The notes: generated by a model from the sequence alone, not told the origin. A DNA stretch of 64,000 nucleotides from Spirochaetia bacterium (GCA_963677925.2 CAXXYH010000003.1:96001-160000); one strand, 5' to 3'; counted from the first letter of the stretch, positions 7,251 through 29,739 are shown. Numbers and translations: made by a program.

Positions 7251-7296
7251 GCCGTTTCTTACCAGACCGCACGGTAGAGCCAAGGTCTGGTTAATT

Positions 7297-8016
7297 CTAA
7301 TATGACTTTCTGAAATGTTCTAATATTTCTTTTGCAATATTCAGATTTTTATCATATTCAGTATCAAGCAAATTACTGATCAATTCACATGATTTTACCA
7401 ATACCCCCATCATGCTATCAACATAAGGTAATATCTTTGATTCATCAATCTTCTTAAATATCTCAACCCCGAGAGTATCTTCATTAAAATGTCTACTAGA
7501 TAAACTTATCACATTATTATGAGTTTCTTGGCAGAGCAAATTATAAATAGATAAATATAAATCTTCAGATTCAGCTTTCTCAAATTTTTCTATTATTGTT
7601 AAGACTTTGGCACCATCATTTATTAAATCATCAAATTCGTCTTTTGATTCTTGGTATTTTTTACAAATATCCTCTATATTTTTTAATTCTTCAATAAATC
7701 TATTTTCTTTTTTATCACATGCAGATTTCAGAATTTTATTTCGTTCTTTTAAATAAGATACCGCCATATCTTTATAATAATTTTCATCCTGAATAATATT
7801 AATCAAGTCGATATGGGCTTCTAAGATATTTCTAAATAATACAGTAACTGCTGTATACATATTTTTCTTCAATAAAATCATACTTGACGTACAATTCTCA
7901 TAAATTGTGCACAGTAAGGTCATCATAAAAAATTGCTGTGGGATTGTATTATCAAAAACATAGTTTTTTATTGTAGATTCTAATAATGTAATTACATTTT
8001 CTAAATATTTAATCAT
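7297..8016 (-). CDS. DUF5677-like protein
   Basis: RNILEAHIDL...YLSIYNLLCQETH pattern. Confidence 0.65.
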   Translation of the reverse strand: MIKYLENVITLLESTIKNYVFDNTIPQQFFMMTLLCTIYENCTSSMILLKKNMYTAVTVLFRNILEAHIDLINIIQDENYYKDMAVSYLKERNKILKSACDKKENRFIEELKNIEDICKKYQESKDEFDDLINDGAKVLTIIEKFEKAESEDLYLSIYNLLCQETHNNVISLSSRHFNEDTLGVEIFKKIDESKILPYVDSMMGVLVKSCELISNLLDTEYDKNLNIAKEILEHFRKSY

Positions 8017-8034
8017 CTCTTAAATCTTCATTTT

Positions 8035-8496
8035 TTATTGTTTTTTAATTTCTTTTACTATACGAATAATGCCTTTTGCAACTTCAAAACTTGCTTCATC
8101 CATATTATCCCAAGTTGTTATCGGCTTCCCATCAGCTGGTAATGCTTGTAATTTACCAAATGGAGAATCTTGCCAAGCACATGGTCTTAAAATAATAGGT
8201 ATTACAACAGCTTCTTGAGCTTCATGTCTTTTTAAAGCTTCCTGCCCCTCAATTTCATAACAATATTTTGATTCTATAAAACTTGGACTCATAAATAGTA
8301 ATATTATAGCAGCCCGTTTTATTCGATTATCAATTTGGGTCTTCCATTCTGAGCCAGCAGGTATTTTCCTATCATGCCATTTCCGAATATAATTTTCTCG
8401 TTCATAAACAATCAATTGACGTCTCACTTCATCCATCAGAACTTCATCTTCATGTGCGTATGAAAAGAAAACTTCTATCATTATTATATTCTCCAA
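8035..8496 (-). CDS. Stand-alone TIR domain protein
   Basis: VFFSYAHED...WHDRKIPAG...SPSFIESKYCYEIE...VIPIILRPC. Confidence 0.9.
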   Translation of the reverse strand: MENIIMIEVFFSYAHEDEVLMDEVRRQLIVYERENYIRKWHDRKIPAGSEWKTQIDNRIKRAAIILLFMSPSFIESKYCYEIEGQEALKRHEAQEAVVIPIILRPCAWQDSPFGKLQALPADGKPITTWDNMDEASFEVAKGIIRIVKEIKKQ

Positions 8497-8607
8497 CAGT
8501 TCATATTTCTAATAGCCCGTCGGCCGGAGGTCCGGGCTATTTCTTCCCTCATTTTACACCCAGAAACGAGAAACTCCTAAGATTTTTAGTATTCCTCCGC
8601 TTCATGC

Positions 8608-8745
8608 ATTTAACGACGATTTGAGTAGCAAAATCGGCCGAGTCTTCGAGGCTTGGCGCAGTTCTGGAGTGAAGCGCGATCAGCGCTGAACGTCTCCGCC
8701 AGAACTGTGACAAAGATTTTGACTACTCCAAATCTCTTGTTAAAT
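8608..8745 (-). repeat. attC type A #8
   Basis: Family consensus. Confidence 0.92.
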
Positions 8746-8793
8746 ACCTTTCTTAACCAGACCGTACGGCGGAGCCAGGTCTGGTTTATCTTC

Positions 8794-9381
8794 TTATTTT
8801 AAGATATCTATTACTTTTATTTCTCCATTAAAAATTATTTCATTATTTCTCTTAATATTCGTACTTTCTCCTGACCAATATTTGACAGCATTATTATAAT
8901 ATTCATTGTACCCTACAATCTCGCTATCAAGAAAATCTTGATTACCTTTATGAAAATTTCCTTCACACTCAAATTCATAAATTTTATAATCAAAACCATC
9001 CTGCTTTATCCACTTCAACCAAAATTCTATATTTTCTTCTTCTGTTAGCCAAATACAATTCCTACGAGAAGGCGAATTATTATAATCTTGCTTTCTTACT
9101 TCTTCAAATATCAATTCTCGAATAAGCATTCCACTTTCATATAATGCATCAGAAAGATATTTTAAACCAATTGGATGTATTTCATTTTTCTCTACACAAG
9201 ATAATGCGTATCTTGCAGGTTTTATATATCGTTTATCATCGAAAGTAATATATGGAGAATATGTTTTATAAAATTCCCAAAAATTATTACTATCAAAAGT
9301 ATTATATATTTTTCCTAATTCAAAAAACGGTTTATTTTTACATTCAAATTTATGTATGTGAAATAATCTTTTAATATTCAT
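8794..9381 (-). CDS. DUF2441-like protein
   Basis: RELIFEEVR...PSRRNCIWL...YWSGE...EIIFNG. Confidence 0.7.
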   Translation of the reverse strand: MNIKRLFHIHKFECKNKPFFELGKIYNTFDSNNFWEFYKTYSPYITFDDKRYIKPARYALSCVEKNEIHPIGLKYLSDALYESGMLIRELIFEEVRKQDYNNSPSRRNCIWLTEEENIEFWLKWIKQDGFDYKIYEFECEGNFHKGNQDFLDSEIVGYNEYYNNAVKYWSGESTNIKRNNEIIFNGEIKVIDILK

Positions 9382-10147
9382 TATTTTTTACATCTTCATC
9401 TGATAAAAACAATTCAAATTTTTCAATTCCATTTTCTTTTGCTATTCTTGTTATTTCTTGTTTTCCTTGTATGACTATAACATTTGACTCTCTTGCTTCA
9501 CGATATTGTTCACTTGATAATCTTCCGGTTGTAATAAATATTGCATTATCTACCCTTCTTGCAAAACATCCTGATAAGAATTTCAACCATTCCATTTGCG
9601 TTGGTGAATTCTTTTCTTTATGAAACTTAGCTTGAACACCTATAGATCGTATTTCACTAAATTTTTCACCCAATTTATCTCCAATAAAATCCAATCCTCT
9701 TTCAGAAGCTTTATATCGACCTTGATGATGCCATACAAAATTTGGATATAATGCTTTTAGCAATTCTAATGTATATAGCTCAAAAGCTTGCCCACGCGCT
9801 GAATTAGAGATAGATAATTCTTCTTGATCAGTATCAGTATTTACTGTAATTTCATTTTCTAATTCATTTTTTATATATTCTTTTCCAGACGGTGTAACTT
9901 GCCATCCTGGATCTTCTTTATTATAAGGATATATAAAACCAGCTTTCACAGCTACCTTATTTATAAAAAACCTTAGGCTTGCTTTCCCTTGAGTTGATAA
10001 CTTCTTTCCTGGCATTTCATTTTCAATAGCTTTATATAAATCTTTAATATCAGCTTTTCCACCTAAATCTAAAATCGCTTTTATTGCAATTTTAATTTGA
10101 GCTTCACCATTTAAACCAATATCATTTCCAGTACATTCATTATCCAA
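9371..10147 (-). CDS. Mrr-like restriction endonuclease (wHTH N-terminus + Mrr catalytic domain)
   Basis: FELYTLELL...GLDFIG...VQAKF...AIFITTGRLS..ARE. Confidence 0.8.
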   Translation of the reverse strand: MDNECTGNDIGLNGEAQIKIAIKAILDLGGKADIKDLYKAIENEMPGKKLSTQGKASLRFFINKVAVKAGFIYPYNKEDPGWQVTPSGKEYIKNELENEITVNTDTDQEELSISNSARGQAFELYTLELLKALYPNFVWHHQGRYKASERGLDFIGDKLGEKFSEIRSIGVQAKFHKEKNSPTQMEWLKFLSGCFARRVDNAIFITTGRLSSEQYREARESNVIVIQGKQEITRIAKENGIEKFELFLSDEDVKNNEY

Positions 10148-10267
10148 TTTTAACCTCTTACATTTCTTTATAGCTCGTCGGCCGGAGGTCCGGGCTATTA
10201 CTTCTCATATTTTACACCCAACCAGCGAATTCTTCTAATATTTTTATTGCTTCAAATTCTAATGTGT

Positions 10268-10409
10268 ATTTAACGACGTTTTGAGTTGCAAAATCGTTCG
10301 GTGTCCACGCCGAATTGGCGCGATTCTGGAGTGCAGCGCGATCAGCGCGGAACGTCTTTAGCCAGAATCGTGACAATAGATTTTGACTACTCCAAAACTT
10401 TTGTTAAAT
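10268..10409 (-). repeat. attC type A #9
   Basis: Family consensus. Confidence 0.92.
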
Positions 10410-10435
10410 GCTTATACCCAACTTACCCTGCACAT

Positions 10436-10496
10436 AAAATAAAAATGTGGCAAAGCCTGGAGCCCGAATGGGCGGAACATATAACCCCTGTTATAT
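10436..10496 (-). repeat. Half of type-B attC (R'' side)
   Basis: aaaataaaaatgtggc...ataacccctgtta matches right part of intact site 29740-29830. Confidence 0.8.
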
Positions 10497-11057
10497 AAAG
10501 TACTTGGGCCACCTAATTAAAAACCCTAAATACATGGATGTATTTAGGGCAGTATTGATTTTGGTTTTATATTTCAATATCTGTAATACGAATAAATAAA
10601 TTACTAATTCTATCAATAATTTTTCAAACACTTCATGATTATCAATTACTTCTATCATAGTCTTTAAACCAGTTTTGTTTTTATCTTTCATTCTTAAATA
10701 TTTGATATAACTTCCATGGTATTCAACTATCTCATAATATGAATGAACATATTTATTTCTATCTTCTTCAACTCTTTTTAATTCTTTCTTCAGTTCTGAA
10801 AATTCGTCAATCACAATACTTTTAACATTATTCTGATACATTATTGATTCAATAATATTTATGATTTTATAGAAACTAATCTCGGAGGCTATAATTCTTG
10901 CATATTCAACATTCCCCAATAATTGCCCCAACAATTCAACAAGTGCATGTTCCAATTCTTGAAAGGAAAAAATAATTAATCCTAATGTACTTGTCGGATC
11001 ATTCATGAATAAATTATTATTTGCATTTTCCATCCAATCGGGTATTTTTGAATCCAT
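10491..11057 (-). CDS. Cassette hypothetical protein with HEPN-like RxxxxH motif
   Basis: FQELEHAL...RNKYVH; C-terminal ~25 aa read through flanking motifs. Confidence 0.65.
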   Translation of the reverse strand: MDSKIPDWMENANNNLFMNDPTSTLGLIIFSFQELEHALVELLGQLLGNVEYARIIASEISFYKIINIIESIMYQNNVKSIVIDEFSELKKELKRVEEDRNKYVHSYYEIVEYHGSYIKYLRMKDKNKTGLKTMIEVIDNHEVFEKLLIELVIYLFVLQILKYKTKINTALNTSMYLGFLIRWPKYFI

Positions 11058-11091
11058 TTCATCCTCTATCTAAGATTTAAGTTTTAACTTG

Positions 11092-11445
11092 TCAAACAAA
11101 TTGAACTAATATTATCACACCTTCTGCCCATTCATATTTCTCAATTATGCGTTGAACTATTTTTGTAACAAACTCTATATAATTGTTTTTGGCACTATAA
11201 GATATTGGATTTTCTCCATTAGCAGTAGTCAATGTAACAATTAATTTATTAACTCCTTCTTCATTTAATAGGGCAACTCTAAAAGCTATTCTAGTTGCCC
11301 ATGCATCAGTTTCAATTTTTATATTTTTAAAAGCTTCATATTCTAACCATTCTTTTCTACTGATATCATATGGTAGAGTTAAATCATAAGAGAATAATGG
11401 TATAGTTAAAGCAAAAAGCATAATACTGAAGATTAATTTTTTCAT
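11092..11445 (-). CDS. Small exported protein
   Basis: MKKLIFSIMLFALTIPLFS signal peptide; AGGAG RBS. Confidence 0.8.
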   Translation of the reverse strand: MKKLIFSIMLFALTIPLFSYDLTLPYDISRKEWLEYEAFKNIKIETDAWATRIAFRVALLNEEGVNKLIVTLTTANGENPISYSAKNNYIEFVTKIVQRIIEKYEWAEGVIILVQFV

Positions 11446-11530
11446 TCTTACTCCTAACTTCTAATTCAATCTTTTATGTTCAACACGAGCCAGGACGGCG
11501 AGTGCCAAATCTCCGCTGCCCAAGTATTTT

Positions 11531-11567
11531 ATATAACGTCCCGGGGTTATATGACGTTTTTATTTTT
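11531..11567 (-). repeat. Half of type-B attC (R' side)
   Basis: taacgtcccggggttatatgacgtttttatttt matches left part of intact site 29740-29830. Confidence 0.8.
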
Positions 11568-11628
11568 CTTAATTTTACCACCACTTACCCGTATTTACCA
11601 ATCATAAACTATTGGCCCATGTCTGTGC

Positions 11629-11772
11629 ATTTAACGACGAAATAAGTTGCGCCCTCGATCCTGAGCCGCAGGCGAAGGAATTGGCGCGGTTTCTGAGTGA
11701 GGGCCATTGCCCGAACGTCTTTAGCAGAAACCGTGACAATAGACGGCGACAACTTCATTTCATTTGTTATGT
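11629..11772 (-). repeat. attC type A #10
   Basis: Family consensus. Confidence 0.92.
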
Positions 11773-11775
11773 GTT

Positions 11776-12792
11776 TCATTCCCTCATCTCAGGTGCAAAT
11801 CGATAAGAATATACTATTTCTTCTACTGAATTATTATAAAGTATTTCATTATCAACTAAATTATATAATTGTCTTAGTAATTTTTGATATTCTTCATTAT
11901 CATTTATCTGGCTCATTACAGTGTAATGTTCTAAAAAGAATGGTAAGAATGAAATAGTAGTAATTTCGTTTACTTCTTTATAAAATTCATTTGTATCAGT
12001 ATTATTATACAATCCTAAATACTTCTCAAAATTTTCATATTGAATTGTCAAATACTCTAATATTTCTATTTCTCCATTGATCAACTTATCCAAATTCATT
12101 TTACCACTGATAACCACATCTCTATCAATTCCTAAAAAATAATTTGAGAAAGAGGCTAAATAATTATCTTTATAATCTACACTTAAAAACCATTCAAATC
12201 TGGTAACCTTATATCCTTTTTCAATAAATGCATGATTAATATATCTGCTTTGAAAATAATATGAATCAAGAATATACAAATATTCTTCTAATTTGTTTGC
12301 AGAAATATATTCGAACCTTTTATTATTCATATAATCATATATAACTTTGAATTCTCGTACCACTGAAGATATTACTAATGTTAATAAGTCTTCTTTTTCA
12401 AGATAATATCTACTTAGATACAATGTTAAATTCTCATTTTCATCAGTTGATACGAGTGCGACATGGGTTATATCTTCATCTGTATTAGTCTTTATTTCAA
12501 ATACTCCATTTTCAATCATTTCTGCAATATCTTTAGCGATTGCCCCATAATCGATCATTTCATCTTCAATATTTTGCATATCATCTAAAATATGATCTAT
12601 CAATTCATATGTCCCAGGCCCTGCTTCTCGTGAATCTGTGTCAGGTAATAAATCATTTAAATCTGAATAATTAATATTCCATTCTTCTTCCATTCCGGAT
12701 ATATACCCAGTTCTTGCACTGAAATCAATTGTTTCAGCATAAATGATTACTGTACTGCAAAAAAATAGAAGTATTAGACTAATCTTTTTCAT
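11776..12792 (-). CDS. Exported acidic hypothetical protein
   Basis: Signal peptide MKKISLILLFFCSTVIIYA; GAGG RBS. Confidence 0.82.
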   Translation of the reverse strand: MKKISLILLFFCSTVIIYAETIDFSARTGYISGMEEEWNINYSDLNDLLPDTDSREAGPGTYELIDHILDDMQNIEDEMIDYGAIAKDIAEMIENGVFEIKTNTDEDITHVALVSTDENENLTLYLSRYYLEKEDLLTLVISSVVREFKVIYDYMNNKRFEYISANKLEEYLYILDSYYFQSRYINHAFIEKGYKVTRFEWFLSVDYKDNYLASFSNYFLGIDRDVVISGKMNLDKLINGEIEILEYLTIQYENFEKYLGLYNNTDTNEFYKEVNEITTISFLPFFLEHYTVMSQINDNEEYQKLLRQLYNLVDNEILYNNSVEEIVYSYRFAPEMRE

Positions 12793-12842
12793 TAAATTTC
12801 CTCTTTAAATTATTTTATCACTAAATCGTAAATCTTAAATAC

Positions 12843-12986
12843 ACATAACGACGAAATAAGTTGCGCCCTCGATCCTGAGCGTAGCGAAGGAATTGGCGTG
12901 ATTCTGGAGTGGAGCGCGATCAGCGCGGAACGTCTCCGCCAGAATCATGACAATAGACGGCGACAACTTCATTTCATTTGTTAAAT
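12843..12986 (-). repeat. attC type A #11
   Basis: Family consensus. Confidence 0.92.
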
Positions 12987-13147
12987 GCCGATAATATCGA
13001 CTCATTTCAGAAAAATAAAAATGAGCTGAAGGCCAAGCTCAATTATAACAATGCTTATATTCTCCAAGAATGTACAAGTTTCTGATTACTTTTAATAATA
13101 TCGCCAAAAGTACACGGATGTACTTTTGAAACTGTATTCTAATATAT

Positions 13148-13912
13148 TTACAAATCTTCTCCAGTTTTATTTTTATATGCAGCAAACAAATAGTTACATA
13201 TAGATTTTGTAGAATCAATTGTCAGTCTTGCATGATGTTCTTTAAGTTTATAATATTTCCCCTTAGATTTTCCATGTGAATCCGAATGTTGATTTCTTAT
13301 CTCACTAATTCCTTGTACTATTGAAAAAAATCCAGATAGAATTTTCTTAAAATATTCTTCTTTATAATCTATTGGATCTAAGTGAAGAAAATTAGAAACT
13401 TTCTTATACAGTTTTATTAGATCATCATTACTACTAATTTCTATAGACTGCTTTTCAAGTATTGTTTTTAATAATGTTTCAAGTAATGTTCGAGAATTTG
13501 TTACTGCACCGTCAAAATCTTTATCCATTAATTTACGATCAATTTTTTCTATCTGTTCTATAGCGTAATCAAAGCTAATTTTCTCTATATGGTTTTCAAT
13601 TTTGATATTATCTACAGGAATTTTCATTGTTGGATCTATAAAAGATTCAATCCAACAAAGATCAATAGAATTTTCTTCAACTGGATATAAAATATGGAAA
13701 GCATCCAAGATTATTTCATTATCATCATGAGAAAGTTCTTGTAACTTTTCATAAGTTACAATATCAGAGTATAATTTTAGTCCAGTACGATATGAATTAA
13801 AGGCTCGACCAAAGCTACTTGATTCAATAAACTCATATGAACATTTTTTAAGTAAAATTGCTAAATCATTCCTTTTTTTATAAATCAAATATTCTAAAAT
13901 TCTATCTTCCAT
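13148..13912 (-). CDS. Abortive infection (Abi_C) family protein
   Basis: DFDGAVTNSRTLLETLLKTIL...IRNQHSDSHG...HHARL. Confidence 0.8.
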   Translation of the reverse strand: MEDRILEYLIYKKRNDLAILLKKCSYEFIESSSFGRAFNSYRTGLKLYSDIVTYEKLQELSHDDNEIILDAFHILYPVEENSIDLCWIESFIDPTMKIPVDNIKIENHIEKISFDYAIEQIEKIDRKLMDKDFDGAVTNSRTLLETLLKTILEKQSIEISSNDDLIKLYKKVSNFLHLDPIDYKEEYFKKILSGFFSIVQGISEIRNQHSDSHGKSKGKYYKLKEHHARLTIDSTKSICNYLFAAYKNKTGEDL

Positions 13913-14054
13913 TCTTCCTCTTTATAGCGAGCCAAGGACGGCGAGCAAAAAACCAACTAAAATCAGAAATTGTACATAGATTATGTGACGTTTTATTTTT
14001 CTTATTGTATTCTATCACACTCATCATTTTCCCAAAACTGTTATTTTTTCGTGC

Positions 14055-14194
14055 ATTTAACGACAATTTGAGCTGCCTGGCGGCGCGAGTCTTCGAGCGC
14101 ATTGGCGTGATTCTGGAACGTAGCGCGATCAGCGCGAAGTGTCTCTGCCAGAATCATGACAATAGCCAGGACTGCTCCAAATTTTTTGTTAAAT
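14055..14194 (-). repeat. attC type A #12
   Basis: Family consensus; stop codon of 14189 ORF lies in R''. Confidence 0.92.
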
Positions 14195-15355
14195 GCCGTT
14201 TTCCATCAAGTCTAAAGTTTCATCTGCTTCTTCAATCCATCTATTTATTATCGCTTTATTCTCATTCTTTTTTTCTTGATTTTTTGTATAGGATTCATTC
14301 AAGTCTTTTTGATGTTTATAATATTCACCGAGTTTTGATATTAAATCGCGTCCTTTCTCATTAATTTTCTTATCTTTAATTATCTTGGTTAGTTCTCTTT
14401 CCATTTCTTCAACAGAATATCCTGTCGTTTTCTTAAAATCTCTTATTACCCATTGTTTTTCAAATATATTTCGTTTCAACCAGCCGTCATATTGTTCTTT
14501 ATATGTTCCATAGATCTTTTCTATTTTGTTTTCCAGTTCTTTATCTATTGCTCTTTTATTTTCTTCTTTTTCACTAATTTTTATTTTCTCATCAAGTAAT
14601 ACCTGTATTGAGCCTACTTCCTTTCCATTATATTTCTCCGGCACTAATAATGATAATGCAACCCCTAAACCTGCTTCTTCTTTGGTTAATTCATGACTTT
14701 TATTTATTTCATCAAATTCTTTTTGACTTATTCCCATATATCCTGCAATTTGTTCTGTTGATTCTTTTGTCGTCATAGTTTTTACATACCCCGGCCCAAC
14801 ACAATAAGTATTTATCTTTAATCTTTCTAATTCCATTGATAAAGTATTACATAATTCAATCTGTGCTGTTTTTAATATCTCATAACATCCCATATATGGG
14901 ACTGCACCTGATGACGGCATAAAAACTATAGTTCCACTATTCTTTTCTTTCATATATGGTAAAAATGCTTTTATTAGTAATACTGGACCCTTTAAATTTA
15001 CATTATAGCTTAAATCCCATTCTTCCGGTTCAATTTCTTCAAGTTTTCCAATCTTTACTATTGTTGCATTATTTATTATCACATCTATTCTTTTATATTT
15101 ATTAAAAATAAGTTTTTTAACTTTTTCAATTTCATTGATATCACCAATATCGCATTCTATTATCTTTAAATTTCCTAATTCCTTTTTCTCACGAGTGTAA
15201 TTTTCTATTTTATTCTTGTCATTTTCTAATATTACTACATTTGCTCCAAATTTTTCACAATTCCTCGCAATTTCCATGCCTATATCACCACAGCCTCCAG
15301 TAATTAAAATGACTTTTCCTTTTAACCTATCGTAGTCTTTAATTTCTTTTTCCAT
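14189..15355 (-). CDS. SDR family oxidoreductase with helical C-terminal extension
   Basis: ITGGCGDIG, INNA, YEILK (YxxxK), VGPGYVKT. Confidence 0.9.
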   Translation of the reverse strand: MEKEIKDYDRLKGKVILITGGCGDIGMEIARNCEKFGANVVILENDKNKIENYTREKKELGNLKIIECDIGDINEIEKVKKLIFNKYKRIDVIINNATIVKIGKLEEIEPEEWDLSYNVNLKGPVLLIKAFLPYMKEKNSGTIVFMPSSGAVPYMGCYEILKTAQIELCNTLSMELERLKINTYCVGPGYVKTMTTKESTEQIAGYMGISQKEFDEINKSHELTKEEAGLGVALSLLVPEKYNGKEVGSIQVLLDEKIKISEKEENKRAIDKELENKIEKIYGTYKEQYDGWLKRNIFEKQWVIRDFKKTTGYSVEEMERELTKIIKDKKINEKGRDLISKLGEYYKHQKDLNESYTKNQEKKNENKAIINRWIEEADETLDLMENGI

Positions 15356-15414
15356 ATTCTTCTCATCATAATTGTATTATTGATAATAACAAATGTATAT
15401 CATAAATTCCGTGC

Positions 15415-15547
15415 ATTTAACGACGAAATAAGTAGCGAAACTGTCCCGAGTCTTCGAGGGTTGGAGCGGTTCTGGAACGAGCGATCAGCGAGTGTCTCCG
15501 CCAGAACCGTGTCAAAAGTTTTGACTACTTCATTTCATTTGTTAAAT
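15415..15547 (-). repeat. attC type A #13
   Basis: Family consensus. Confidence 0.92.
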
Positions 15548-15587
15548 GCTTTTCTTTATCAGACCGCACGACGGAGTCAAGGTCTGA

Positions 15588-16469
15588 TTATATATTACTC
15601 TTAATAATGATTGTGGTACCAACTCCACCTTCTTTATAAATATTTCCTAAATTTTCTTTAAAATATTCTATTCCTACATCTCCAGTGCTATGCATAGGAT
15701 ATAAACATCTTAAAGGTATCTCCTGAAATTTCTTCTTTGTATATACCAATAATCTTTCATTTGCTTGATGTAATTGTAAGCCTCCAATAATAAAACTTAT
15801 ATTATTATCACTCTTTTTTATGATATGATTTATTGTATTCACTATTCCTGAATGACAACATCCACATATTACAATTTTACTATTATCTTCAAGTTCAATA
15901 ACTAATGAAATATCATCATCCAATTGATCCTGTTCTTCAATTCCATTCTCTCTTTTTATTACTTTTTTTAACATTGGATTTAAAATCTCATAATCATTTT
16001 TTCTTGGGATTTCTCCTGTTATCCAAATATTATCAGTTATTCTATATTCATCTTTTCTCTTAATTATTCTGCCACTTTGTTCAATTCTTTCTATTTCTTT
16101 AGTATCTTGTATCCCAACATTTTTTTCAGTACCATCTTCCAATATTAATATTTTTTCTATTAACGTATCAGGATGGCAAACAACTCTAACATAGTCATTT
16201 GAATTCGTAAAAGCATATGATAATCCACCGGTATGATCAAAATGTCCATGACTTAAAACTATATAATCAATATCGCTTATATCTAACTTTAATTTTTGTA
16301 GATTTATTTTCAATCTTTCATTTTCTGGGCCAGTATCAAATAGTATTTTTATAATAGTTCCATCATCTAATTCATTCTCAACTAATGCTGAAAATCCTCC
16401 AGGAGCATATTCGTCTCCAACAATTGATTTATTATCAACTATTACCGTGATTTTAACCTGTTTTACCAT
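15588..16469 (-). CDS. MBL-fold metallo-hydrolase
   Basis: LFDTG, SHGHFDHTGG, GCCHSG, PMHSTG. Confidence 0.9.
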   Translation of the reverse strand: MVKQVKITVIVDNKSIVGDEYAPGGFSALVENELDDGTIIKILFDTGPENERLKINLQKLKLDISDIDYIVLSHGHFDHTGGLSYAFTNSNDYVRVVCHPDTLIEKILILEDGTEKNVGIQDTKEIERIEQSGRIIKRKDEYRITDNIWITGEIPRKNDYEILNPMLKKVIKRENGIEEQDQLDDDISLVIELEDNSKIVICGCCHSGIVNTINHIIKKSDNNISFIIGGLQLHQANERLLVYTKKKFQEIPLRCLYPMHSTGDVGIEYFKENLGNIYKEGGVGTTIIIKSNI

Positions 16470-16756: not shown

Positions 16757-16783
16757 AGAGCAATTTTCTTCATTTCTCGAATT

Positions 16784-20434: not shown

Positions 20435-20462
20435 TCATTTTATTCCAATTTTTCTTCTGTAA

Positions 20463-20601: not shown

Positions 20602-21241
20602 ATATTATTTTTCTTATCAAAATTCCTCGTTCTGCAAAATATTTTTTAAATAGTTCCAATTGTATTTTGTAATTTTGTTGAGTTCTTATTTCATCTCCTG
20701 AAGGATTATTAATATAAATAGTATTGTTCAAATTATCGACACCTGATACAACAACAAGATGACCACCTTTTTCCCCATTATATGTCATATCCGGTTTACG
20801 GATTAAATAATGTACCGACACAATAAATATATTGCCATCTAATGTTGCATTAAATATCTCATCTGTGTTTAAAGGTGAAACAGAGTTTGCATCTAACTGA
20901 AAACTATCCTTTAAATATTCACAAAACGGTACATAAAATAATCCATCAATACTTTCCTTATTAACTTTAGATCCACCATATTCAGTACATTCTTTTGCTA
21001 ATTGGATTATAGGTGGTGAATCAATCTTCCAGTATTCTAAAATCATTTTCAAACATGCCATTCCGCAAATGTTTTTAGCCCATAATTCATATTCTTTAAC
21101 ATTATTTGCTCCAGAATATTCCCATAAAGGATCATTTGTTGCTTGGATTTTACCAGATATAATTTCTCCTACTATCTCACGAGACATCCATTGTGAATAA
21201 TAAGGCATTTCATTAAGTATAATTTTTTGACTATTAACCAT
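20600..21241 (-). CDS. C39-like cysteine peptidase, copy 2
   Basis: PYYSQ, CGMACLKM, GHLVVVSG, YINNP. Confidence 0.82.
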   Translation of the reverse strand: MVNSQKIILNEMPYYSQWMSREIVGEIISGKIQATNDPLWEYSGANNVKEYELWAKNICGMACLKMILEYWKIDSPPIIQLAKECTEYGGSKVNKESIDGLFYVPFCEYLKDSFQLDANSVSPLNTDEIFNATLDGNIFIVSVHYLIRKPDMTYNGEKGGHLVVVSGVDNLNNTIYINNPSGDEIRTQQNYKIQLELFKKYFAERGILIRKII

Positions 21242-21771
21242 TTTCCCAACTTAAAATTTGATAGACAATAATATAGAGCTTTATTCCCAATTTTTTTGGG
21301 TTAATTCTATCACCTAACATAATCATTTACATTTATTCAATAGCTTAGTGCTTTTGTATATTCATATTCTTCTTATTTACCTCATAATACGGTAAAATCT
21401 ATTCAAAGACATTAGATCTATTTCCGAATGTTCAGACCGAGCCTTATATACAAATTTCTAATAACCACATGTACAGAAATTCTTGTATTTTTTCATTTTA
21501 AAGCTGTTTTCAGACTATTGGAACTATATTTTATTAATTATTCTATATTGTTCTTTTGGATATAGGCAATTGTTAAGTAAGTCTTTAGCTGATAAATACT
21601 TAATGATTTTAAATGCAATTGAAAATCATTAATTTCCTTTATTCTTATAATTCTTATAGGCTTAAGATTTTAATAACAAACTGCTTTTTTAAAGAATTCT
21701 AATTGTATTAAGCTTGTACACTAATTCATTAGAAATTTGATGACAGAGTTATCCGCCTGTACCCGAATTAT

Positions 21772-21909
21772 AGATAACGACGATTTGAGTAGCGAAACCG
21801 GCCGAGTCTTCGAGGCTTGGCGCAGTTCTGGAACGCAGCGCGATCAGCGCGGAGTGTCTCTGCCAGAACTGTGACAAAGGTTTTGACTACTCCAAATCTC
21901 TTGTTAAAT
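21772..21909 (-). repeat. attC type A #18
   Basis: Family consensus. Confidence 0.92.
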
Positions 21910-21988
21910 GCCTTATTATCCAGACCGTACGGCGGAGCCAGGTCTGGATTTCTTCATTATTATTTTTTTGATATTAATAAAGTTTTTA

Positions 21989-23152
21989 TTAAACCTCTTG
22001 TATTAATTCATTTTTATAGAAATTTTTTAAACTTTCTTCATATGCTAAATATGGTCTTTTTATAGATTCGGTTGATAATTTTATTAATTCTGATAACCAA
22101 ATAATTAGATCAACTAATGCATTTTCAATTCTAAATTTATCTATTTCAAAATGTAACCCTTTATTAAATAAGTCTAAAAGACGATCAGCTTCATCCCCAA
22201 GTTCAGTTAATTTATTTGTTTCTTTTATATTATTTTCTTCAATTGTTTTTTCAATATATGCCCATATTCTATTTTTAAACTTATCATTTCCAACATCTCT
22301 CCCTTTCCATTTTTCTTTTTGTGCAGGGAAAAGGTAATTTGCAATTTTTTCTAAAAATCTTCTTCCAGATATTGCAACTTGAGCAAAATCATCCTCTGTT
22401 TCAGCATTTTTAAATACTCTTGCAGCAGAAGCTAAAGTTTCAAAAATCTTTGGATGAAGCTCTTCAATAAAAAAGCTGACGTCTGATGCAATTTCATCAT
22501 TTAATCCATTTAACTTAGAAAAAATATCTTTAAATTCTTCAACTCTTTTAAAATGTTCTAAACTATCATAATTATCAAAAATTGTTCTTCTTGCGCCTAT
22601 ATCTTCATAATTAACAATAAATCCATTTTTTTCGAAACAATTCTTTATGGAGATATCGGGATCTTCATTATCATTCATATGGTAAAAGATTGAGCATTTA
22701 TTTGAAATTAATCCATATTCTTCACATAATGAATTCCTAAATAATGCCAAATGTGGGCCATAATTAAAAATAACATCCATAGCTCCAAGATAAGTTTTAT
22801 CATCTCGTAAAATTACATCAATGTTAGAAGCAATTTCATATGTCATATTTTGAAAAACCCAACAAAAAACTGTTGCAGTTGTAAATGTACTTTCCAACTC
22901 TGTTTCTTTAAGCTTATTATATTTATGAGGTCTATAAACTTTTCTACAAACTTCTTCCAGATGAGCATAAGTTCTATTCTGACTTTGAGAAACAATTCCA
23001 TAAGTTAAAACGTCTCCTATCGAAAGCCTCATATGTCTCTTTGTATTTTGTAAAATGTTAGTTCTAAGTATTTTATTCATTATCGGAATACCATAAAATC
23101 CATCATACTCTTCATGATCTGAATTAAATAGAAAAGCAATATTCATACACAT
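21989..23152 (-). CDS. Hypothetical protein with AbiTii/HEPN-like C-terminal domain
   Basis: AQVAISGRRFLEKIANYLFP...KFKNRIWAYI...NKGLH. Confidence 0.65.
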   Translation of the reverse strand: MCMNIAFLFNSDHEEYDGFYGIPIMNKILRTNILQNTKRHMRLSIGDVLTYGIVSQSQNRTYAHLEEVCRKVYRPHKYNKLKETELESTFTTATVFCWVFQNMTYEIASNIDVILRDDKTYLGAMDVIFNYGPHLALFRNSLCEEYGLISNKCSIFYHMNDNEDPDISIKNCFEKNGFIVNYEDIGARRTIFDNYDSLEHFKRVEEFKDIFSKLNGLNDEIASDVSFFIEELHPKIFETLASAARVFKNAETEDDFAQVAISGRRFLEKIANYLFPAQKEKWKGRDVGNDKFKNRIWAYIEKTIEENNIKETNKLTELGDEADRLLDLFNKGLHFEIDKFRIENALVDLIIWLSELIKLSTESIKRPYLAYEESLKNFYKNELIQEV

Positions 23153-23294
23153 CCCTTCGTCATAATTTTTTAATAAGAGTTAATTACTCCCCACAATCGC
23201 CCGTCGGCCGGAGGTCCGGGCGATTTCTTATTCCTTATATTACCCCCTAAAACGATTATCAGCTAATATTTTTATTATTACATTCTCTAAGTGC

Positions 23295-23434
23295 ATTTAA
23301 CGACGTTTTGAGCTGCCTGGCGGCGCGAGTCTTCGCGCGCATTGGCGTGATTCTGGAGTGCAGCGCGATCAGCGCGGAACGTCTATGCCAGAATCATGAC
23401 AATAGCCAGGACTGCTCCAAAACTTTTGTTAAAT
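23295..23434 (-). repeat. attC type A #19
   Basis: Family consensus. Confidence 0.92.
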
Positions 23435-23459
23435 GCTATACCCAAACAACCCAATCCAT

Positions 23460-23520
23460 AAAATAAAAATGTGGCGCAGCCCGAAGCCCGAATGGGCTGA
23501 GCATATAGCCCCTGTTATAG
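23460..23520 (-). repeat. Half of type-B attC (R'' side)
   Basis: aaaataaaaatgtggcgcagccc...atagcccctgtta. Confidence 0.8.
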
Positions 23521-23619
23521 GAAGTATTTTGGCTCTTGAGTCAGACCGTACATCGGAGATAGGGCTGGCCTCTTAAACATACAACTTTCAACTTTAACAG
23601 TATCCTAAAACAAACTTTG

Positions 23620-24747
23620 TCAATTAAAAGCATACTTCACTAAAGCTATTTCATTCTCACTATCACTACCTTTTTCAAATAAAAATAAGTTATCTCCAGT
23701 TTGAAGTTTTCTTACAACTTCGATGTCTTTCAAATCCTCATCAATAGTCCCAATCCATCTTGGACTATTTAACTCTCTTATATCATAAACAAAATAATTC
23801 CCGATTAAAATATTATTAAAATCAAAATCTAAATCAAAATAACTAAACAAGTTTATTTCATCTGTTGAATTACATTTTTGTAGAAATTCATATTTTTTTT
23901 CACTATCTAATTTTATTATGCTCCAAAAATACTCTTCTGAATTTAAACCTCTTGCTCCATCACTTACTATAATATCATTATATATATTAAATCCATTGTC
24001 CTCTAAACTGATAGAATTTATATCGACCAATTCATAATTATTAGAAATATTAGTAATATCATAAACAATCATTTGATTTGTTATTGTAAAAGGATTACCA
24101 TCTTTATCAACTTTAAGCTCACTTGAAAAAGTGTATAAATAATTTGAATTTAAGTAAATTTCTTTATCAATTACTCCTTCGAAAGAATCTAAATAATGTC
24201 TTTCAATTTCTAGCATATTATCAGCATCCAAAATTAATAATAGTTTATAGTATGAAAATGAATTAGAATCTAAAATATAAATTTTATTATCCATACATCT
24301 TAAACTTAAATAATAGGTAGTGTTTAAATTATAGGTATTATTTTCACTAATAGAATATTTAAAAGATGGATTTGTTATATCCTCAATCAAATATACCAGA
24401 CAATCCGTTGACCCTAGAAGATACAAATAATTTTCATAAATATACAATTGTTTAAAATCAGGAACAATATCATTATAATAATTTGAATTATCAACCCAAG
24501 GGATGGTGGAAACTTCAATCAATCCTTCCAAATCTATCAAGTGCACCATCCCATCAGTACTATAATATACTAAAACTTTAGAAGTCTCAGATATAAACGC
24601 AGAGAATGAATCTGCTTTTTCATCTAAAATAAGTTTTGTATCTTTAGAAAATATTTGATTGAAATGGTATCCATTTTGATAATATGGAAAAAAGTTTTTA
24701 CATGAGGTTATTCCTAATAATAATAAAAATAATAAAATCCTTTTCAA
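23620..24747 (-). CDS. Lipoprotein, possible beta-propeller
   Basis: MKRILLFLLLLGITSC lipobox; repeated (V)YDI..P motifs. Confidence 0.8.
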   Translation of the reverse strand: MKRILLFLLLLGITSCKNFFPYYQNGYHFNQIFSKDTKLILDEKADSFSAFISETSKVLVYYSTDGMVHLIDLEGLIEVSTIPWVDNSNYYNDIVPDFKQLYIYENYLYLLGSTDCLVYLIEDITNPSFKYSISENNTYNLNTTYYLSLRCMDNKIYILDSNSFSYYKLLLILDADNMLEIERHYLDSFEGVIDKEIYLNSNYLYTFSSELKVDKDGNPFTITNQMIVYDITNISNNYELVDINSISLEDNGFNIYNDIIVSDGARGLNSEEYFWSIIKLDSEKKYEFLQKCNSTDEINLFSYFDLDFDFNNILIGNYFVYDIRELNSPRWIGTIDEDLKDIEVVRKLQTGDNLFLFEKGSDSENEIALVKYAFN

Positions 24748-24860
24748 TACGTTTCATTCCTTATATATTGACATAATATATCAATTTTAAATTTTATTCT
24801 TTTTTTCTTATTGCCCGTCGGCCGGAGGTCCGGGCGTCTTTCTCTTAGCCAAAATATTTC

Positions 24861-24898
24861 CTATAACGTCCCGGGGTTATATGACGTTTTTATTTTTT
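24861..24898 (-). repeat. Half of type-B attC (R' side)
   Basis: taacgtcccggggttatatgacgtttttatttt. Confidence 0.8.
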
Positions 24899-24954
24899 AA
24901 TTTTACCACCAATTACCCGTATTTACCATTTCAAACTGTTTTACCATGTTGTGC

Positions 24955-25092
24955 ATTTAACGACGATTTGAGTAGCAAAATCGGCCGAGTCTTCGAGGCT
25001 TGGCGCAGTTCTGGAACGTAGCGCGATCAGCGCGGAGTGTCTCTGCCAGAACTGTGACAAAGATTTTGACTACTCCAAATCTTTTGTTATAT
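24955..25092 (-). repeat. attC type A #20
   Basis: Family consensus. Confidence 0.92.
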
Positions 25093-25106
25093 GGGATTTC
25101 CATTAT

Positions 25107-25601
25107 TTATGGATAAAAATTATGTTCTGGGTCTACAAATACGACATAAAAAGTATTCTTATCAAATGCTTTTCCAGTTTTACAATGGATTTTCCCATTA
25201 TATTCATCTGGAACTACAAAACCAATAAGCCTTTTATCATATTCTAAACGGAATCTACCCCATAGTACTTGATGTGGAATATATGAAGGATGTTTTAATT
25301 TTGAATGCTTTGGAAATGCACCATAATTTACATAAATACTGTTTCGGTGCTTCCCACTTCCAATTTTCATATTTTCCCAATGCTCTAAATTTTCTCTACT
25401 ATACTCAATTAATTTCTTAAATATTTTATTACTATCATCCTTCTGCATATTCTTTATATCTTCACATAAAGACTGAGAGCTATCAAAATAGCTGAAATTA
25501 AATTTCATTCTATTGGATAGAGTATCGGTTTCAGAATCAAGACTAGCTTGTGGAAAAGAATTAATAAACGAATCTTTTTTACTATTCTGAAAATTTTTCA
25601 T
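25107..25601 (-). CDS. MAG6450-like protein (possible RelE-fold toxin)
   Basis: KFNFSYFD...WGRFRL...RLIGF...TFYVVFVDPEHNFYP. Confidence 0.6.
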   Translation of the reverse strand: MKNFQNSKKDSFINSFPQASLDSETDTLSNRMKFNFSYFDSSQSLCEDIKNMQKDDSNKIFKKLIEYSRENLEHWENMKIGSGKHRNSIYVNYGAFPKHSKLKHPSYIPHQVLWGRFRLEYDKRLIGFVVPDEYNGKIHCKTGKAFDKNTFYVVFVDPEHNFYP

Positions 25602-27859: not shown

Positions 27860-28258
27860 CTAAAATAGTGGCATTATAAATTGTTCATCTTTATTAAAAG
27901 ACCACTGAACTTGCCACGTTGAACCTGTAATTTGATCTAAAAGGATAAAATTCCACATATTACTAGTATAATATAGTGTAAATCTTCCATCTATCTTTTT
28001 TTTATTTTCTGCCAGATTCTTATCATTTAAAATTACTCCACCTCTTTCATTATCTTCTACAGAATATTGTAAAATCCACATTTTTCCCGTAGCAGTCTCT
28101 AGTTCAATAAATGTCCAAATATTTTGTGTTTTAAAGAGTCGATAAGGAGCATTAGGATCTTGAGTTGATTCTATAACCTGAGTTTGTGCTATTAATCCTG
28201 TAGATATAATAAAAAAGACAACTAAAAATATCATAACTTTCTTCATAATATCCTCCAA
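27860..28258 (-). CDS. Small exported protein with duplicated motif
   Basis: Signal peptide; YRLFKTQNIWTFIELET.TG / FTLYYTSNMWNFILLDQ.TG repeat. Confidence 0.8.
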   Translation of the reverse strand: MEDIMKKVMIFLVVFFIISTGLIAQTQVIESTQDPNAPYRLFKTQNIWTFIELETATGKMWILQYSVEDNERGGVILNDKNLAENKKKIDGRFTLYYTSNMWNFILLDQITGSTWQVQWSFNKDEQFIMPLF

Positions 28259-28283
28259 AACTATTTAACCCTTCTTAGAATAT

Positions 28284-28419
28284 GTATAACGACGATTTGA
28301 GTAGCAAAATTGATCCGCGTCTTCGCGGAATTGGCGCGATTCTGGAGTGAGCGATCAGCGAACGTCTTTAGCCAGAATCGTGACAATAAATTTTGACTAC
28401 TCCAAATCTCTTGTTAAAT
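28284..28419 (-). repeat. attC type A #22
   Basis: Family consensus. Confidence 0.92.
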
Positions 28420-28445
28420 GCTTTTGCCCAACTTACCCAATTCAT

Positions 28446-28508
28446 AAAATAAAAATGTGGCGTAGCCCAAGGAGCGCTTAGCGACGAAGCAAATAACCCC
28501 TGTTATAC
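28446..28508 (-). repeat. Half of type-B attC (R'' side)
   Basis: aaaataaaaatgtggcgtagccc...ataacccctgtta. Confidence 0.8.
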
Positions 28509-28603
28509 GCTTTGAGCTTGACATACAGACCGTTCAACGGAGTTAGGTCTGGATTCTTTATCTAATATAGTAAAATTTTTATCGGAATAATTAATATTAT
28601 ACT

Positions 28604-29638
28604 CTAATCAACCCAAGCAGGTACTTCAGGAGCAAAATCTATTTTATTAGTTACTAACCGATATGCTAATGCCTCTCCTTCATGTTTTATATCAATAGAT
28701 GTTATTTCACATTTGAAAATATGTTGATATTTCTCAGTTAGAACTTCATACGCTTGTTGATTCAGGAGAGTATTAGAAGCTTCTGTATTTGACATTCGAC
28801 AAGCATATACTACAGGGACTCCAACAACAGTGTACTCATTATTTATGATATTCAACGAAACCTCTCCATAATCAATCCCAATGCCTAATCCTATATTATT
28901 TAAAATAACGTTAAAACATGATTTTGATTGATCATAAACTTTATTAAATTCTTCATGACATTCAATTGAACTTTTTAAAGCATAAAACAGAGCATCTTTT
29001 CCTGAATAAAAATCAGGAAAAAATGCAAGAATCCCATCGCCAGTAAATTTATCAAATATACCATAATTTTTTTGTATTATTTTAATTATTCCTTTTATTA
29101 GCTCATTTATAAATTCAGAGAATTTATCTGGGGTTCTTGACTTTAACATTAATTCTGTAGATCTTCTAATATCCAATGAAAACACAACAGCATTTGATTT
29201 TCTCACTTCCTCAAATTGCTTTCTAAATTTTTCATCATTTAGTAATTTGGTTTGAGCTGCTTCATTAATCCTATGATAAATGTATCTTAATTTATATTTA
29301 TTCTGAAGTTCTTCGAATTTATCCTTTAGCACTTTTGTTTCATCTCTTGGATTTTTATTAAAAGTACCAAGTTTTTTTGCCATATCTGCTATTTCATCAA
29401 AAGTGCTAAAATAGTTTTCAAATTTTATGGATTTTAATGTTTCGTCTAATTGATCCAACACATCAAAAGCTATTGATTTAATATTTCTATCAGAAAAATC
29501 TTTTAGAGCCTCAGCTAATTCTTTTATTTTTTCTTCTTCTAAATAACTTTTTGTTAAAATAGCATCTACTTTTGAAATATTATTTTTAGATTCTCTTAAT
29601 GCTTTTCCTGACTCTTCTTTTGCATCATCAAAATTCAA
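28604..29638 (-). CDS. Class III nucleotidyl (adenylate/guanylate) cyclase domain protein
   Basis: FSLDIRRST, DKFTGDGILAFF, GIGIDYGEV, YTVVG.PV..ACR. Confidence 0.88.
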   Translation of the reverse strand: MNFDDAKEESGKALRESKNNISKVDAILTKSYLEEEKIKELAEALKDFSDRNIKSIAFDVLDQLDETLKSIKFENYFSTFDEIADMAKKLGTFNKNPRDETKVLKDKFEELQNKYKLRYIYHRINEAAQTKLLNDEKFRKQFEEVRKSNAVVFSLDIRRSTELMLKSRTPDKFSEFINELIKGIIKIIQKNYGIFDKFTGDGILAFFPDFYSGKDALFYALKSSIECHEEFNKVYDQSKSCFNVILNNIGLGIGIDYGEVSLNIINNEYTVVGVPVVYACRMSNTEASNTLLNQQAYEVLTEKYQHIFKCEITSIDIKHEGEALAYRLVTNKIDFAPEVPAWVD

Positions 29639-29739
29639 TATTACACCTCCAACTTTTTTATATCTAAAAATAAAAACTAAATATTAACTCGCCCGTCGGC
29701 CGGAGGTCCGGGCGTCTTATTCTTGTCAAGCTCATTGCG

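Follow-up and report, generated by a model that had tools for sequence, protein, structure and literature searches.

Integron attachment sites (attC) are usually seen as single imperfect hairpins that end at the R box, with ~6 nt shared at the cassette 5' end, and the origin of integron cassettes is unsolved. Lambda Int is a heterobivalent recombinase whose arm-type sites flank the core in the circle and are split to both ends after integration, and in some heterobivalent tyrosine recombinases an extra N-terminal domain reads the arm-type sites. Here we analysed a 64,000-nt stretch of a Spirochaetia bacterium genome (GCA_963677925.2, CAXXYH010000003.1:96001-160000; G000:C3:96001-160000 in our numbering; genome 5.04 Mb, 99.6% complete), called the window throughout, in which six integron cassettes carry two conserved bulged hairpins, A and B, one on either side of their genes. 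The recombination module at this locus consists of three to four helices, with the cargo separating one half from the other. What is new is that, in the common attC type, pairing between the two ends of a cassette lengthens the attC stem by ~22 bp, and A and B stand at the foot of this extension, each joined by a fixed linker. We favour, with moderate confidence, the reading that A and B are accessory cis-acting single-stranded DNA (ssDNA) hairpins of an enlarged multi-helix attC module, rather than terminators or repetitive extragenic palindromic (REP) repeats.

Of published proposals, the closest is the DUF1874 motif, in which several stems recur in consecutive intergenic regions and which was proposed as an unusual attC-like ssDNA element (Weinberg et al. 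2017, PMC5737381). The OTH-22-1 motif has likewise been proposed as an unusual attC-like single-strand DNA element (PMC8632094). In the portions of text that present them, both motifs are described as single intergenic units with no part beyond the cargo, whereas half of the module described here lies there. Rfam, which includes the DUF1874 motif, gave no match in the window at gathering scores, and a search of 23100-25100 at E-values up to 5 gave only two chance-level matches. In the full-text literature searched, which included PMC8352920, PMC3607928, PMC5737381 and PMC8632094 and was confined to text outside the supplements, no description of an extended R-box stem with flanking hairpins was found. 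A further comparison is with the co-directional ('atypical') integrons of Treponema, in which the recombinase gene runs in the same direction as the cassettes (PMC3607928). As that text presents them, they resemble the A/B-rich arrays described below in belonging to spirochaetes and in having a co-directional recombinase. They may differ in that the recombinase of the A/B arrays falls below the integron-integrase cut-off, matches that model in two pieces and is without the IntI-specific insert.

Two hairpins confined to integron cassettes

The window contains a chromosomal integron consisting of an intI gene and ~25 cassettes to its left, with the cassette genes on the minus strand. The intI product scored 382.5 bits against NCBIfam TIGR02249 (cut-off 265; profile positions 5-315) and carries the Pfam domains Phage_integrase and SAM_4. 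G+C content is 26-32% in the array and 34-45% in the core genes to its right. By convention, the strand antisense to the cassette genes, here the plus strand, is the attC bottom strand. About 25 sites in the array read A(TT)TAAC...GTTAAAT or GTTAT, with inverted R''/L''/L'/R' boxes (RYYYAAC...GTTRRRY) between co-oriented genes. We refer to the main attC of the array, of ~134 nt, as attC1. A second type of ~100 nt, attC2, reads ATAAC-G-TCCC-GGGGTTATGTG ... CACATAGCCCC-T-GTTAT. The integrase gene and several of the attC sites are located as follows:

32199-33458, plus strand: intI, 419 aa, canonical integron integrase, divergent from the cassette array (TIGR02249, Pfam)
8610-8743, plus strand: attC1 between A of cassette 1 and B of cassette 2
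7114-7248, 10270-10407, 15417-15545, 16622-16754 and 21774-21907: equivalent attC1 sites
23297-23432, 24957-25090 and 28286-28417: further equivalent attC1 sites
29747-29851, plus strand: complete attC2 (~100 nt), including the B-side arm (29824-29851) of a MazEF cassette

Hairpin A (GCCCGTCGGCCGGAGGTCCGGGC) occurs six times in the window, always on the plus strand, against an expectation of 0.00 from 100 shuffles. Hairpin B also has six copies: a fixed-length pattern catches four of them (expected 0.08), the two with an AA bulge were caught by a regular expression, and a covariance model of B recovered precisely these six sites. All six cassettes have the same order on the plus strand, namely B, then cargo (minus-strand genes), then A. 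Read in gene sense, the complement of A (A') therefore occupies the leader position and that of B (B') lies shortly after the stop codon. The twelve hairpins, all on the plus strand, are:

7263-7289, plus strand: B of cassette 1, loop AGA
8515-8537, plus strand: A of cassette 1 (TIR and DUF5677 genes, 7297-8496, minus strand)
8758-8783, plus strand: B of cassette 2
10173-10195, plus strand: A of cassette 2, with one mismatch (Mrr_cat and DUF2441 genes, 8794-10147)
15560-15586, plus strand: B of cassette 3
16525-16547, plus strand: A of cassette 3 (metallo-beta-lactamase-fold gene, 15588-16469)
21921-21946, plus strand: B of cassette 4
23199-23221, plus strand: A of cassette 4 (387-aa protein, 21989-23152, no Pfam family)
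23542-23567, plus strand: B of cassette 5, 3' arm GGGCTG
24813-24835, plus strand: A of cassette 5 (375-aa protein, 23620-24747, no Pfam family)
28526-28551, plus strand: B of cassette 6
29691-29713, plus strand: A of cassette 6 (344-aa protein, 28604-29638, no Pfam family)

The initial annotation of this DNA had reported paired bulged hairpins around six unrelated cargos. The hairpins are real, although its coordinates were off by 1-4 nt, those of A being too low. Its description of B in the window also holds, with a GGA loop in five of the six copies (the exception being AGA at 7263) and inner stems of GGC/GCC, GGT/GCC, GAC/GTC, ATC/GAT and AAC/GTT. By Pfam, the six cargos are indeed unrelated: TIR with DUF5677, Mrr_cat with DUF2441, a metallo-beta-lactamase fold and three without a Pfam family.

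The A/B-bearing units are integron cassettes, since every feature of cassette membership open to testing was present in them. Like canonical cassettes, they form an array beside intI, carry inverted R/L boxes and co-oriented genes, and have their crossover at AAC/GTT; as in canonical attC, the bottom strand folds slightly better and the excised form would be a circle. The position of the crossover is indicated by two observations. Bases adjacent to it covary within a cassette (CTAAC with GTTAG, AGAAC with GTTCT), and the copies of one cassette that is present in two arrays diverge just past ATAAC. Together these place it at AA|C (G|TT) in the R box, which is the canonical position and is here deduced from sequence rather than from a reaction. 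Unlike in canonical attC, the R box here runs into a ~22-bp covarying stem contributed by both cassette ends and interrupted by an ATT/(C)WKT imperfection, and two extra conserved hairpins stand at the foot of that stem. As a result of the two-ended stem and the hairpins, ~55 nt upstream of the cargo are conserved here.

Genome-wide there are 16 A-like and 15 B sites, all within C3:91675-125713 and C4:1139215-1160305. The claim that the two motifs always occur together and are confined to cassettes is thus borne out across the genome, the sole exception being a degenerate A at C4:1160283 for which no B was detected. Single motifs scattered around core genes were looked for, and none lay outside the two arrays. 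This array-only, one-strand distribution contradicts generic REP-like repeats. Such repeats, or IS200/IS605-type ends that sit in cassettes, would share with A and B the form of short GC-rich bulged hairpins present in many copies in AT-rich DNA, but here no copy lies outside the cassette arrays of the genome, every copy occupies the same strand, and the order B, cargo, A is strictly kept. Whereas an insertion sequence has similar ends, A and B are unlike one another. A Y1 transposase gene is absent from the genome, and the diverse cargo (TIR, Mrr, metallo-beta-lactamase fold, unknown) comes without a transposase. We therefore regard an origin as REP-like repeats or insertion-sequence ends as highly improbable.

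The exact 23-mer of A was found in at least 80 stretches of a species-level genome collection, mostly marine Spirochaetia metagenome-assembled genomes, with some short contigs binned to other phyla. Copies of A are clustered in five other genomes. One of these genomes has an array of ~200 kb with 158 copies of A on a single strand, from 1.850 to beyond 2.048 Mb, the array running to at least 2.061 Mb. Among 151 cassettes with both hairpins, the longest open reading frame (ORF) lies opposite the hairpin strand in 144. Of the seven exceptions, four carry an inserted transposase or recombinase gene, two have only short ORFs (63-101 aa), and in the last, which spans 5.9 kb, the ORF is membrane-like; reversed cargo is not clearly seen in any of them.

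Two further observations concern the occurrence of these cassettes. A 385-aa transposase-like ORF is inserted in cassettes opposite the cargo strand in several copies (loci L001, L058 and L069; G001 and G002 arrays). In genome G004, a solitary two-gene A/B cassette lies far from the main array (C1, ~1.69 Mb; L044), so that the isolated copy of A there belongs to a cassette and not to a core gene. One neighbour of this cassette is the truncated arm of a different cassette; at its opposite end, non-attC sequence begins right after CCTATAAC. This arrangement suggests insertion at a secondary site.

A stem extension formed between the two cassette ends

The full geometry is seen in attC2 cassettes. 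In the window these are cassettes 5 and 6; the C4 array and the majority of copies from other genomes also belong to this type. On the plus strand, the first half of the module consists of A, a pyrimidine linker (G-A/T-Y-T-T-Y-C-T-C-T-T), a 9-nt arm segment S1, an invariant ATT, a 4-nt segment S2 and ATAA|C. The second half continues with the attC core (L boxes and loop), GTTAT, S2', (C)WKT (that is, (C)AGT, TGT or TTT), S1', the linker CTTCTTGTC and B. These linkages are constant: A is always followed by its linker and S1, and B with attC context is always preceded by a pyrimidine linker, right after S1' or, in attC1 cassettes, right after the R box. Within a cassette, S1 can pair with S1' and S2 with S2', so that complementary segments face each other from opposite sides of the cargo. 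In the window the arms are located as follows:

23514-23541, plus strand: B-side arm of cassette 5 (R box GTTAT, S2, AGT, S1, linker), complementary to 24836-24867
24836-24867, plus strand: A-side arm of cassette 5 (linker, S1, ATT, S2, ATAAC)
28502-28525, plus strand: B-side arm of cassette 6, complementary to 29714-29746
29714-29746, plus strand: A-side arm of cassette 6

We evaluated the pairing of the arms within and between cassettes. The median energy of the arm duplex within a cassette was -37.5 kcal/mol (151 cassettes), compared with -19.8 kcal/mol across one attC (121 pairs of array neighbours) and -14.4 kcal/mol for random pairs. Cases in which the arm of the left neighbour differs are informative about the choice of partner (18 uninformative and 11 unparsed cases were left out), and in these 58 the B-side arm matched its own A-side arm 48 times, that of the neighbour twice and neither eight times. 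The arms are diverse, with 47 distinct S1 pairs and 40 distinct S1 sequences, and are Watson-Crick paired in 378 of 423 cells of S1 and 172 of 188 cells of S2. Because the arms pair across the cargo of the same cassette, the stem is contiguous only in the excised circle, or else forms by long-range pairing in the array. In the circle state the R box is thus extended by a ~22-bp covarying stem with A and B at its foot. Computed with DNA parameters, the circle-form junction was more stable than the array form in 53 of the 58 cassettes, by a mean of 11.6 kcal/mol, and the circle-form folds of these 58 contained A in 42 cases, B in 56 and the paired arms in 54.

Window cassettes 1-4, which are of the attC1 type, have B after the R box and a 10-nt linker, with no S1 arm; the extended-stem model accordingly fits attC2 cassettes fully and attC1 cassettes only in part. 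The MazEF cassette (genes 29880-30520) has the arms AGGTTCGTG / CACGAACCT (29824-29851, 30521-30553) and the linkers, with no hairpin A. The arms are therefore a general feature of attC2 cassettes.

Hairpins and arms differ in how far their sequences are constrained. In the larger set of copies, A is close to invariant: 162 of 245 are identical and 54 more differ solely at the bulge base. The inner G.T pair of A is kept in 232 of the 245 and is otherwise G-C (9), A-T (3) or ambiguous (1). This alternation with G-C and A-T indicates a real pair, in which wobble is tolerated only on the plus strand. The apical loop is GGA in nearly all 245 copies, with AGG, GAA, AAA or AGA in 12. An invariant A beside freely covarying arms argues that A is read by its sequence, perhaps through specific recognition by a protein.

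B, by contrast with A, varies while keeping its fold. Covariation was scored on the best 150 of 239 model matches (76 distinct), in an alignment that is fitted to the model and so leans towards structure. The score was 0.233, compared with 0.144 for shuffles, and none of 500 shuffles reached it. Cells changed on both sides numbered 54 against 23.2 expected, and shifting the partners by 1-3 columns gave far lower scores. The covariation first noticed among the six window copies therefore persists in a larger alignment. Pair counts were taken from the model-fitted alignment, as MAFFT misplaced the 3' arm of B in copies with A instead of AA. Loops and pairs were catalogued in 188 copies (78 distinct) collected with a pairing-free pattern; five distinct sequences without attC context were left out of the alignment. 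The two hairpins also have an architecture in common: an outer stem of 5-7 bp leads through a 5' internal loop beginning with G to an inner stem of 3-4 bp, which is closed by a triloop, and a small bulge lies on the 3' side. Their pyrimidine-rich flanks are similar.

Nesting of the two attC types was also observed. An attC1 with ~95 and 40 nt of its own flanks lies within the attC2 loop at 23297-23541, 24836-25090, 28286-28525, 30521-30784, 10270-10490 and 11530-11775, and the C4 array has such nesting too. This arrangement, present in cassettes 5 and 6, makes two R boxes usable.

Separately, attC1-type A/B cassettes and G002 share a conserved leader of 60-70 nt between attC1 and A' (8538-8607, 10196-10267, 16548-16619 and 23222-23294 in the window). 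Read in gene sense, it has a -10-like TAAAAT/TATAAG/TAATAT ~13 nt before A' and an A-rich tract upstream, and may be a cassette-borne promoter that puts A' at the 5' end of the mRNA. A promoter scan returned 125 promoter-like sites against 106 expected, a result that is uninformative at 30% GC and lends no support to a promoter in the leader.

Cargo reuse and the recombinase of A/B-rich arrays

We next considered S1 and S2 together as a barcode, of which there are 48 among the parsed cassettes, and scored cargo as unrelated when it shared <5% of 13-mers. Twenty-one barcodes occurred in more than one cassette; in 18 of these 21 the cargo was unrelated, with up to ten distinct cargos per barcode. 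Counted as pairs of cassettes with the same barcode, 263 had unrelated and 26 related cargo. The converse, related cargo with a different barcode, was found in seven pairs, one of which reflects a shared insertion sequence and three of which differ by one base, leaving ~3 genuine cases. Within a barcode group, similarity reaches only a short way towards the cargo: ~5 nt ahead of A (TCYTC) and 8-10 nt beyond B (GAYTCTTY). The barcode counts indicate that the two arms are passed on as a pair, whereas the cargo lying between B and A is exchanged. The arms thus provide a two-sided barcode, or lineage marker, for tracing how scaffolds gain cargo, and with it the question of cassette origin becomes testable by comparative genomics and simple recombination assays.

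The initial annotation had proposed that the hairpins are recognition signals of a cassette-building or cargo-swapping scaffold. One part of this stands, in that a noncoding scaffold is reused with unrelated cargo; the machinery and the empty scaffold that it would call for were not found. The co-occurring HUH/TnpA or reverse transcriptase genes it looked to are missing: Y1/HUH transposase (PF01797) had no match in the genome, although control genomes match, and reverse transcriptase (PF00078) had none either. A group IIC-attC intron was considered and rejected, with no PF00078 match in the genome and no Rfam intron family in the window. Empty scaffolds, with B and A 3-33 nt apart, were absent from two public collections (genome_contigs and metagenome_contigs), and the shortest B-to-A span was 629 nt. 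The single match to an empty scaffold was a GC-rich chance match, on one contig seen in both collections.

These results bear on the strongest form of that proposal, in which A and B with their TTCTTC-like flanks would be recognition or cut sites of a dedicated ssDNA enzyme that loads and swaps cargo, so that the array would show cassette building itself. The identical two-sided barcodes with unrelated cargo fit it, as do the sharp ends of conservation outside A and B and the architecture and flanks that the two hairpins share. So does the extension of the conserved part to the 5' side of the cargo, which mere addition of an attC behind a gene would not give. Set against these are the lack of both enzyme genes and of closely spaced B and A, and homologous exchange between near-identical A and B units (~35 nt with linkers) would suffice to explain the reuse. 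The reuse pattern does not by itself demonstrate a dedicated cargo machine, as homologous exchange within the units would give the same picture, and we consider this form of the proposal very doubtful. The fixed geometry of A and B relative to the extended attC stem is instead what a role in ordinary recombination of cassettes would lead one to expect, more than a distinct machine for building them.

The enzyme that acts on these modules may differ between arrays. A/B cassettes occur in canonical IntI arrays in this window and in G002. The second array of the genome begins right after a gene for a 357-aa tyrosine recombinase (G000 C4:1138043-1139116; L093:1468-2541) that is co-directional with the cassettes; the interval from the stop codon of this gene to the first A' contains GTTTATAA-like repeats. 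The A/B arrays of four other genomes have a homologue at the corresponding place: G005 (C9:487083, 96% identity), G002 (3511207, 53%), G003 (3240131, 41%) and G001 (1846803, 40%, beside the 200-kb array). In G004 there is a weaker relative nearby, and it is divergent rather than co-directional. The recombinase scored 232.7 bits against NF040815 (cut-off 220) and 192 bits, in two pieces, against the integron-integrase model (cut-off 265). The sub-cut-off, two-piece match indicates a recombinase without the IntI-specific insert, and an alignment of the G001 homologue with the window IntI has 56 gapped positions at that insert. In G001 the sole IntI-like gene is broken by stop codons. The recombinase at the head of these arrays, which reach ~200 kb, would thus not be recognised as IntI by standard integron finders, and A/B-rich arrays have probably been filed as integrase-less attC clusters. 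Very large arrays may be run by a recombinase that is not a classical IntI.

Residues ~1-60 of the recombinase are confidently predicted to form a beta-beta-alpha-beta-beta-alpha domain. Its matches are weak: 22.3 bits to Pfam HARP, under the cut-off of 25, and, with Foldseek, a probability of 0.95, TM of 0.53 and E of 0.09 to SMARCAL1 HARP, with the XPB N-terminal domain also weakly matched. HARP and XPB damage-recognition domains bind distorted DNA. A Protein Atlas search with the N-terminus returned only unnamed clusters, below 0.9. The layout recalls that of lambda, although the lambda arm sites are double-stranded repeats, A and B are hairpins and the N-terminal domain here appears HARP/XPB-like by weak matches. 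The recombinase family is widespread, and the N-terminal domain is not specific for A, given that none of 80 loci of distant relatives carries it (see below); the domain is a candidate reader of A and no more.

A broader reading would join these observations and treat the cassettes as a footprint of cassette making. A barcoded scaffold (A, arms, attC, arms, B) would be reloaded between B and A at the TTCTTC-like flanks, run by an Xer-like recombinase with a HARP-like structure-reading domain instead of the IntI-specific domain, as a sister system to classical integrons. We offer this only as a speculative and quite unlikely possibility.

Strand, molecule and competing roles for the hairpins

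If A and B are accessory ssDNA hairpins of the attC module, crossover at AA|C would split the module in the array, placing the A half 5' of the cargo and the B half 3' of it. The halves would meet on excision as a circle, or by long-range pairing, so that the R box would then be extended by ~22 bp with A and B at the foot. The folded ssDNA would be the substrate of the array recombinase, which would be IntI in the window or, in A/B-rich arrays, an Xer-like enzyme that lacks the domain specific to IntI; a host factor might assist. A would serve as a sequence-specific site, whereas B and the arms would act through their shape, setting strand and register and preventing the attC fold from mixing with the cargo. 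An effect of A and B on recombination is what we infer from their position and conservation, and the molecule is probably ssDNA, as suggested by the fixed geometry of the hairpins relative to attC together with known attC biology.

Several lines of evidence point to the plus strand. The claim that G-T pairs favour it is supported by both hairpins: among the 188 copies of B, plus-strand pairs include 46 G-T against 10 A-C, and the G.T of A is in some copies replaced by A-T or G-C. As had been noted initially, A and B are both antisense to the genes and so, by definition, on the attC bottom strand. The conserved ATT of the stem faces AGT or TGT, which gives a T.G pair on the plus strand. For the A-attC-B unit at 8510-8790, the folding energy was -54.9 kcal/mol (z -6.25) on the plus strand and -53.1 kcal/mol (z -4.5) on the minus strand.

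Other observations weigh against the ssDNA reading or limit its reach. The S1/S2 arms show no clear strand bias (13 G-T, 8 A-C). The C before and the A after the inner stem of B, present in 170 of 188 copies, are a mismatch on the plus strand and a G.U pair in gene-sense RNA. GGC-type B folds better on the minus strand both as DNA (-5.9 against -4.0 kcal/mol on the plus strand) and as RNA (-11.1 against -9.6 kcal/mol). Taken singly, the hairpins have no extra stability over shuffled sequence. The loops of B are GGA in 137 of the 188 copies, ACC in 21, AAC in 19 and other in 11; ACC and AAC occur in one genome. GGA is therefore not a universal feature of B, and the 40 copies with ACC or AAC indicate that it is not essential. 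In cassettes 1-4 the geometry differs, ~60 nt of conserved leader separating A from the R box, and some arm-bearing cassettes, such as MazEF, have no A. A was found at none of 80 loci, from many phyla, that hold distant relatives of the recombinase. The choice of DNA over RNA is based on indirect signs; for a site that would work as folded bottom-strand DNA, these are the pair counts and fold energies.

Some of these points would be expected if the module acted in gene-sense mRNA. The arms would then pair across the transcript and enclose the message of one cassette, like the processing stems that flank rRNA, with A' as a 5' hairpin and B' as a 3' hairpin that stabilise or insulate each cassette mRNA by cleavage or folding; A' shows ACCUCC, an anti-Shine-Dalgarno-like sequence that could damp translation. 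Both arms would be on one transcript, and within-cassette pairing is as compatible with this role as with the circle. The median distance from A' to the first start codon is 65 nt, B' lies a few tens of nt past the stop, and other cassettes bear a terminator-like hairpin in gene sense at the B position. The G.U pair of B in 170 of 188 copies, the slightly better fold of GGC-type B on the minus strand and the lack of strand bias in the arms agree with it too. Other features weigh against it. In mRNA the G.T of A becomes an A-C mismatch, and A folds as RNA with -11.5 kcal/mol on the plus strand against -8.1 kcal/mol on the minus strand; the excess of G-T over A-C pairs in B favours the plus strand, and ATT opposite AGT would be an A.C mismatch. 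There is no gene-sense U run after B', and the distance of A and B is fixed to the attC arms and variable to the genes. On balance an mRNA role seems unlikely.

A role in antisense RNA from the plus strand would agree with the strand preference, as G.U pairs are allowed there. The hairpins would be weak terminators that shield attC and cargo, as the initial annotation had suggested for the T-rich tracts, or GGA-loop hairpins bound by CsrA. GGA within a hairpin loop is the preferred target of CsrA, which the genome encodes. GGA is apical in nearly all 245 copies of A (12 exceptions) and in 137 of 188 of B, and both hairpins are followed on the plus strand by a pyrimidine/U-rich tail, GAUUYCUUY. 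However, no run of at least four U directly follows the stem, and a terminator scan (7000-25200, both strands) flagged none of ten A/B hairpins, a weak result since the scan is blind to bulged stems. Terminators need no arms that covary within a cassette, no fixed linkers and no invariant A stem, the 40 B loops without GGA do not fit CsrA binding, and the role would require transcription of the plus strand. We judge this role very unlikely and retain the reading of A and B as ssDNA parts of an enlarged attC module.

Cassettes without A or B have other elements at the same positions. A second hairpin family occupies the B position of cassettes without A/B (10523-10550, 13104-13128 and 29852-29879), with a variable outer stem and a conserved core (A/G)TACA-YGGA-TGTA(Y). 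In gene sense, two of its copies have T-rich tails and look terminator-like, and its plus-strand core resembles the CsrA selection consensus. At the A position of two other cassettes, just upstream of the gene in gene sense, the motif CGAGCCA(A)GGACGGCGAG is present (11486-11502 and 13928-13945).

As for the cargo of the array, two near-identical Peptidase_C39-like cassettes (213 and 217 aa) are present, at 20600-21241 and 30785-31438. Much of the cargo has a defence-like look, including TIR with DUF5677 and the Mrr-type nuclease with DUF2441 (7297-10147), as well as an ATPase-like 378-aa protein with a partner and several toxin-antitoxin pairs.

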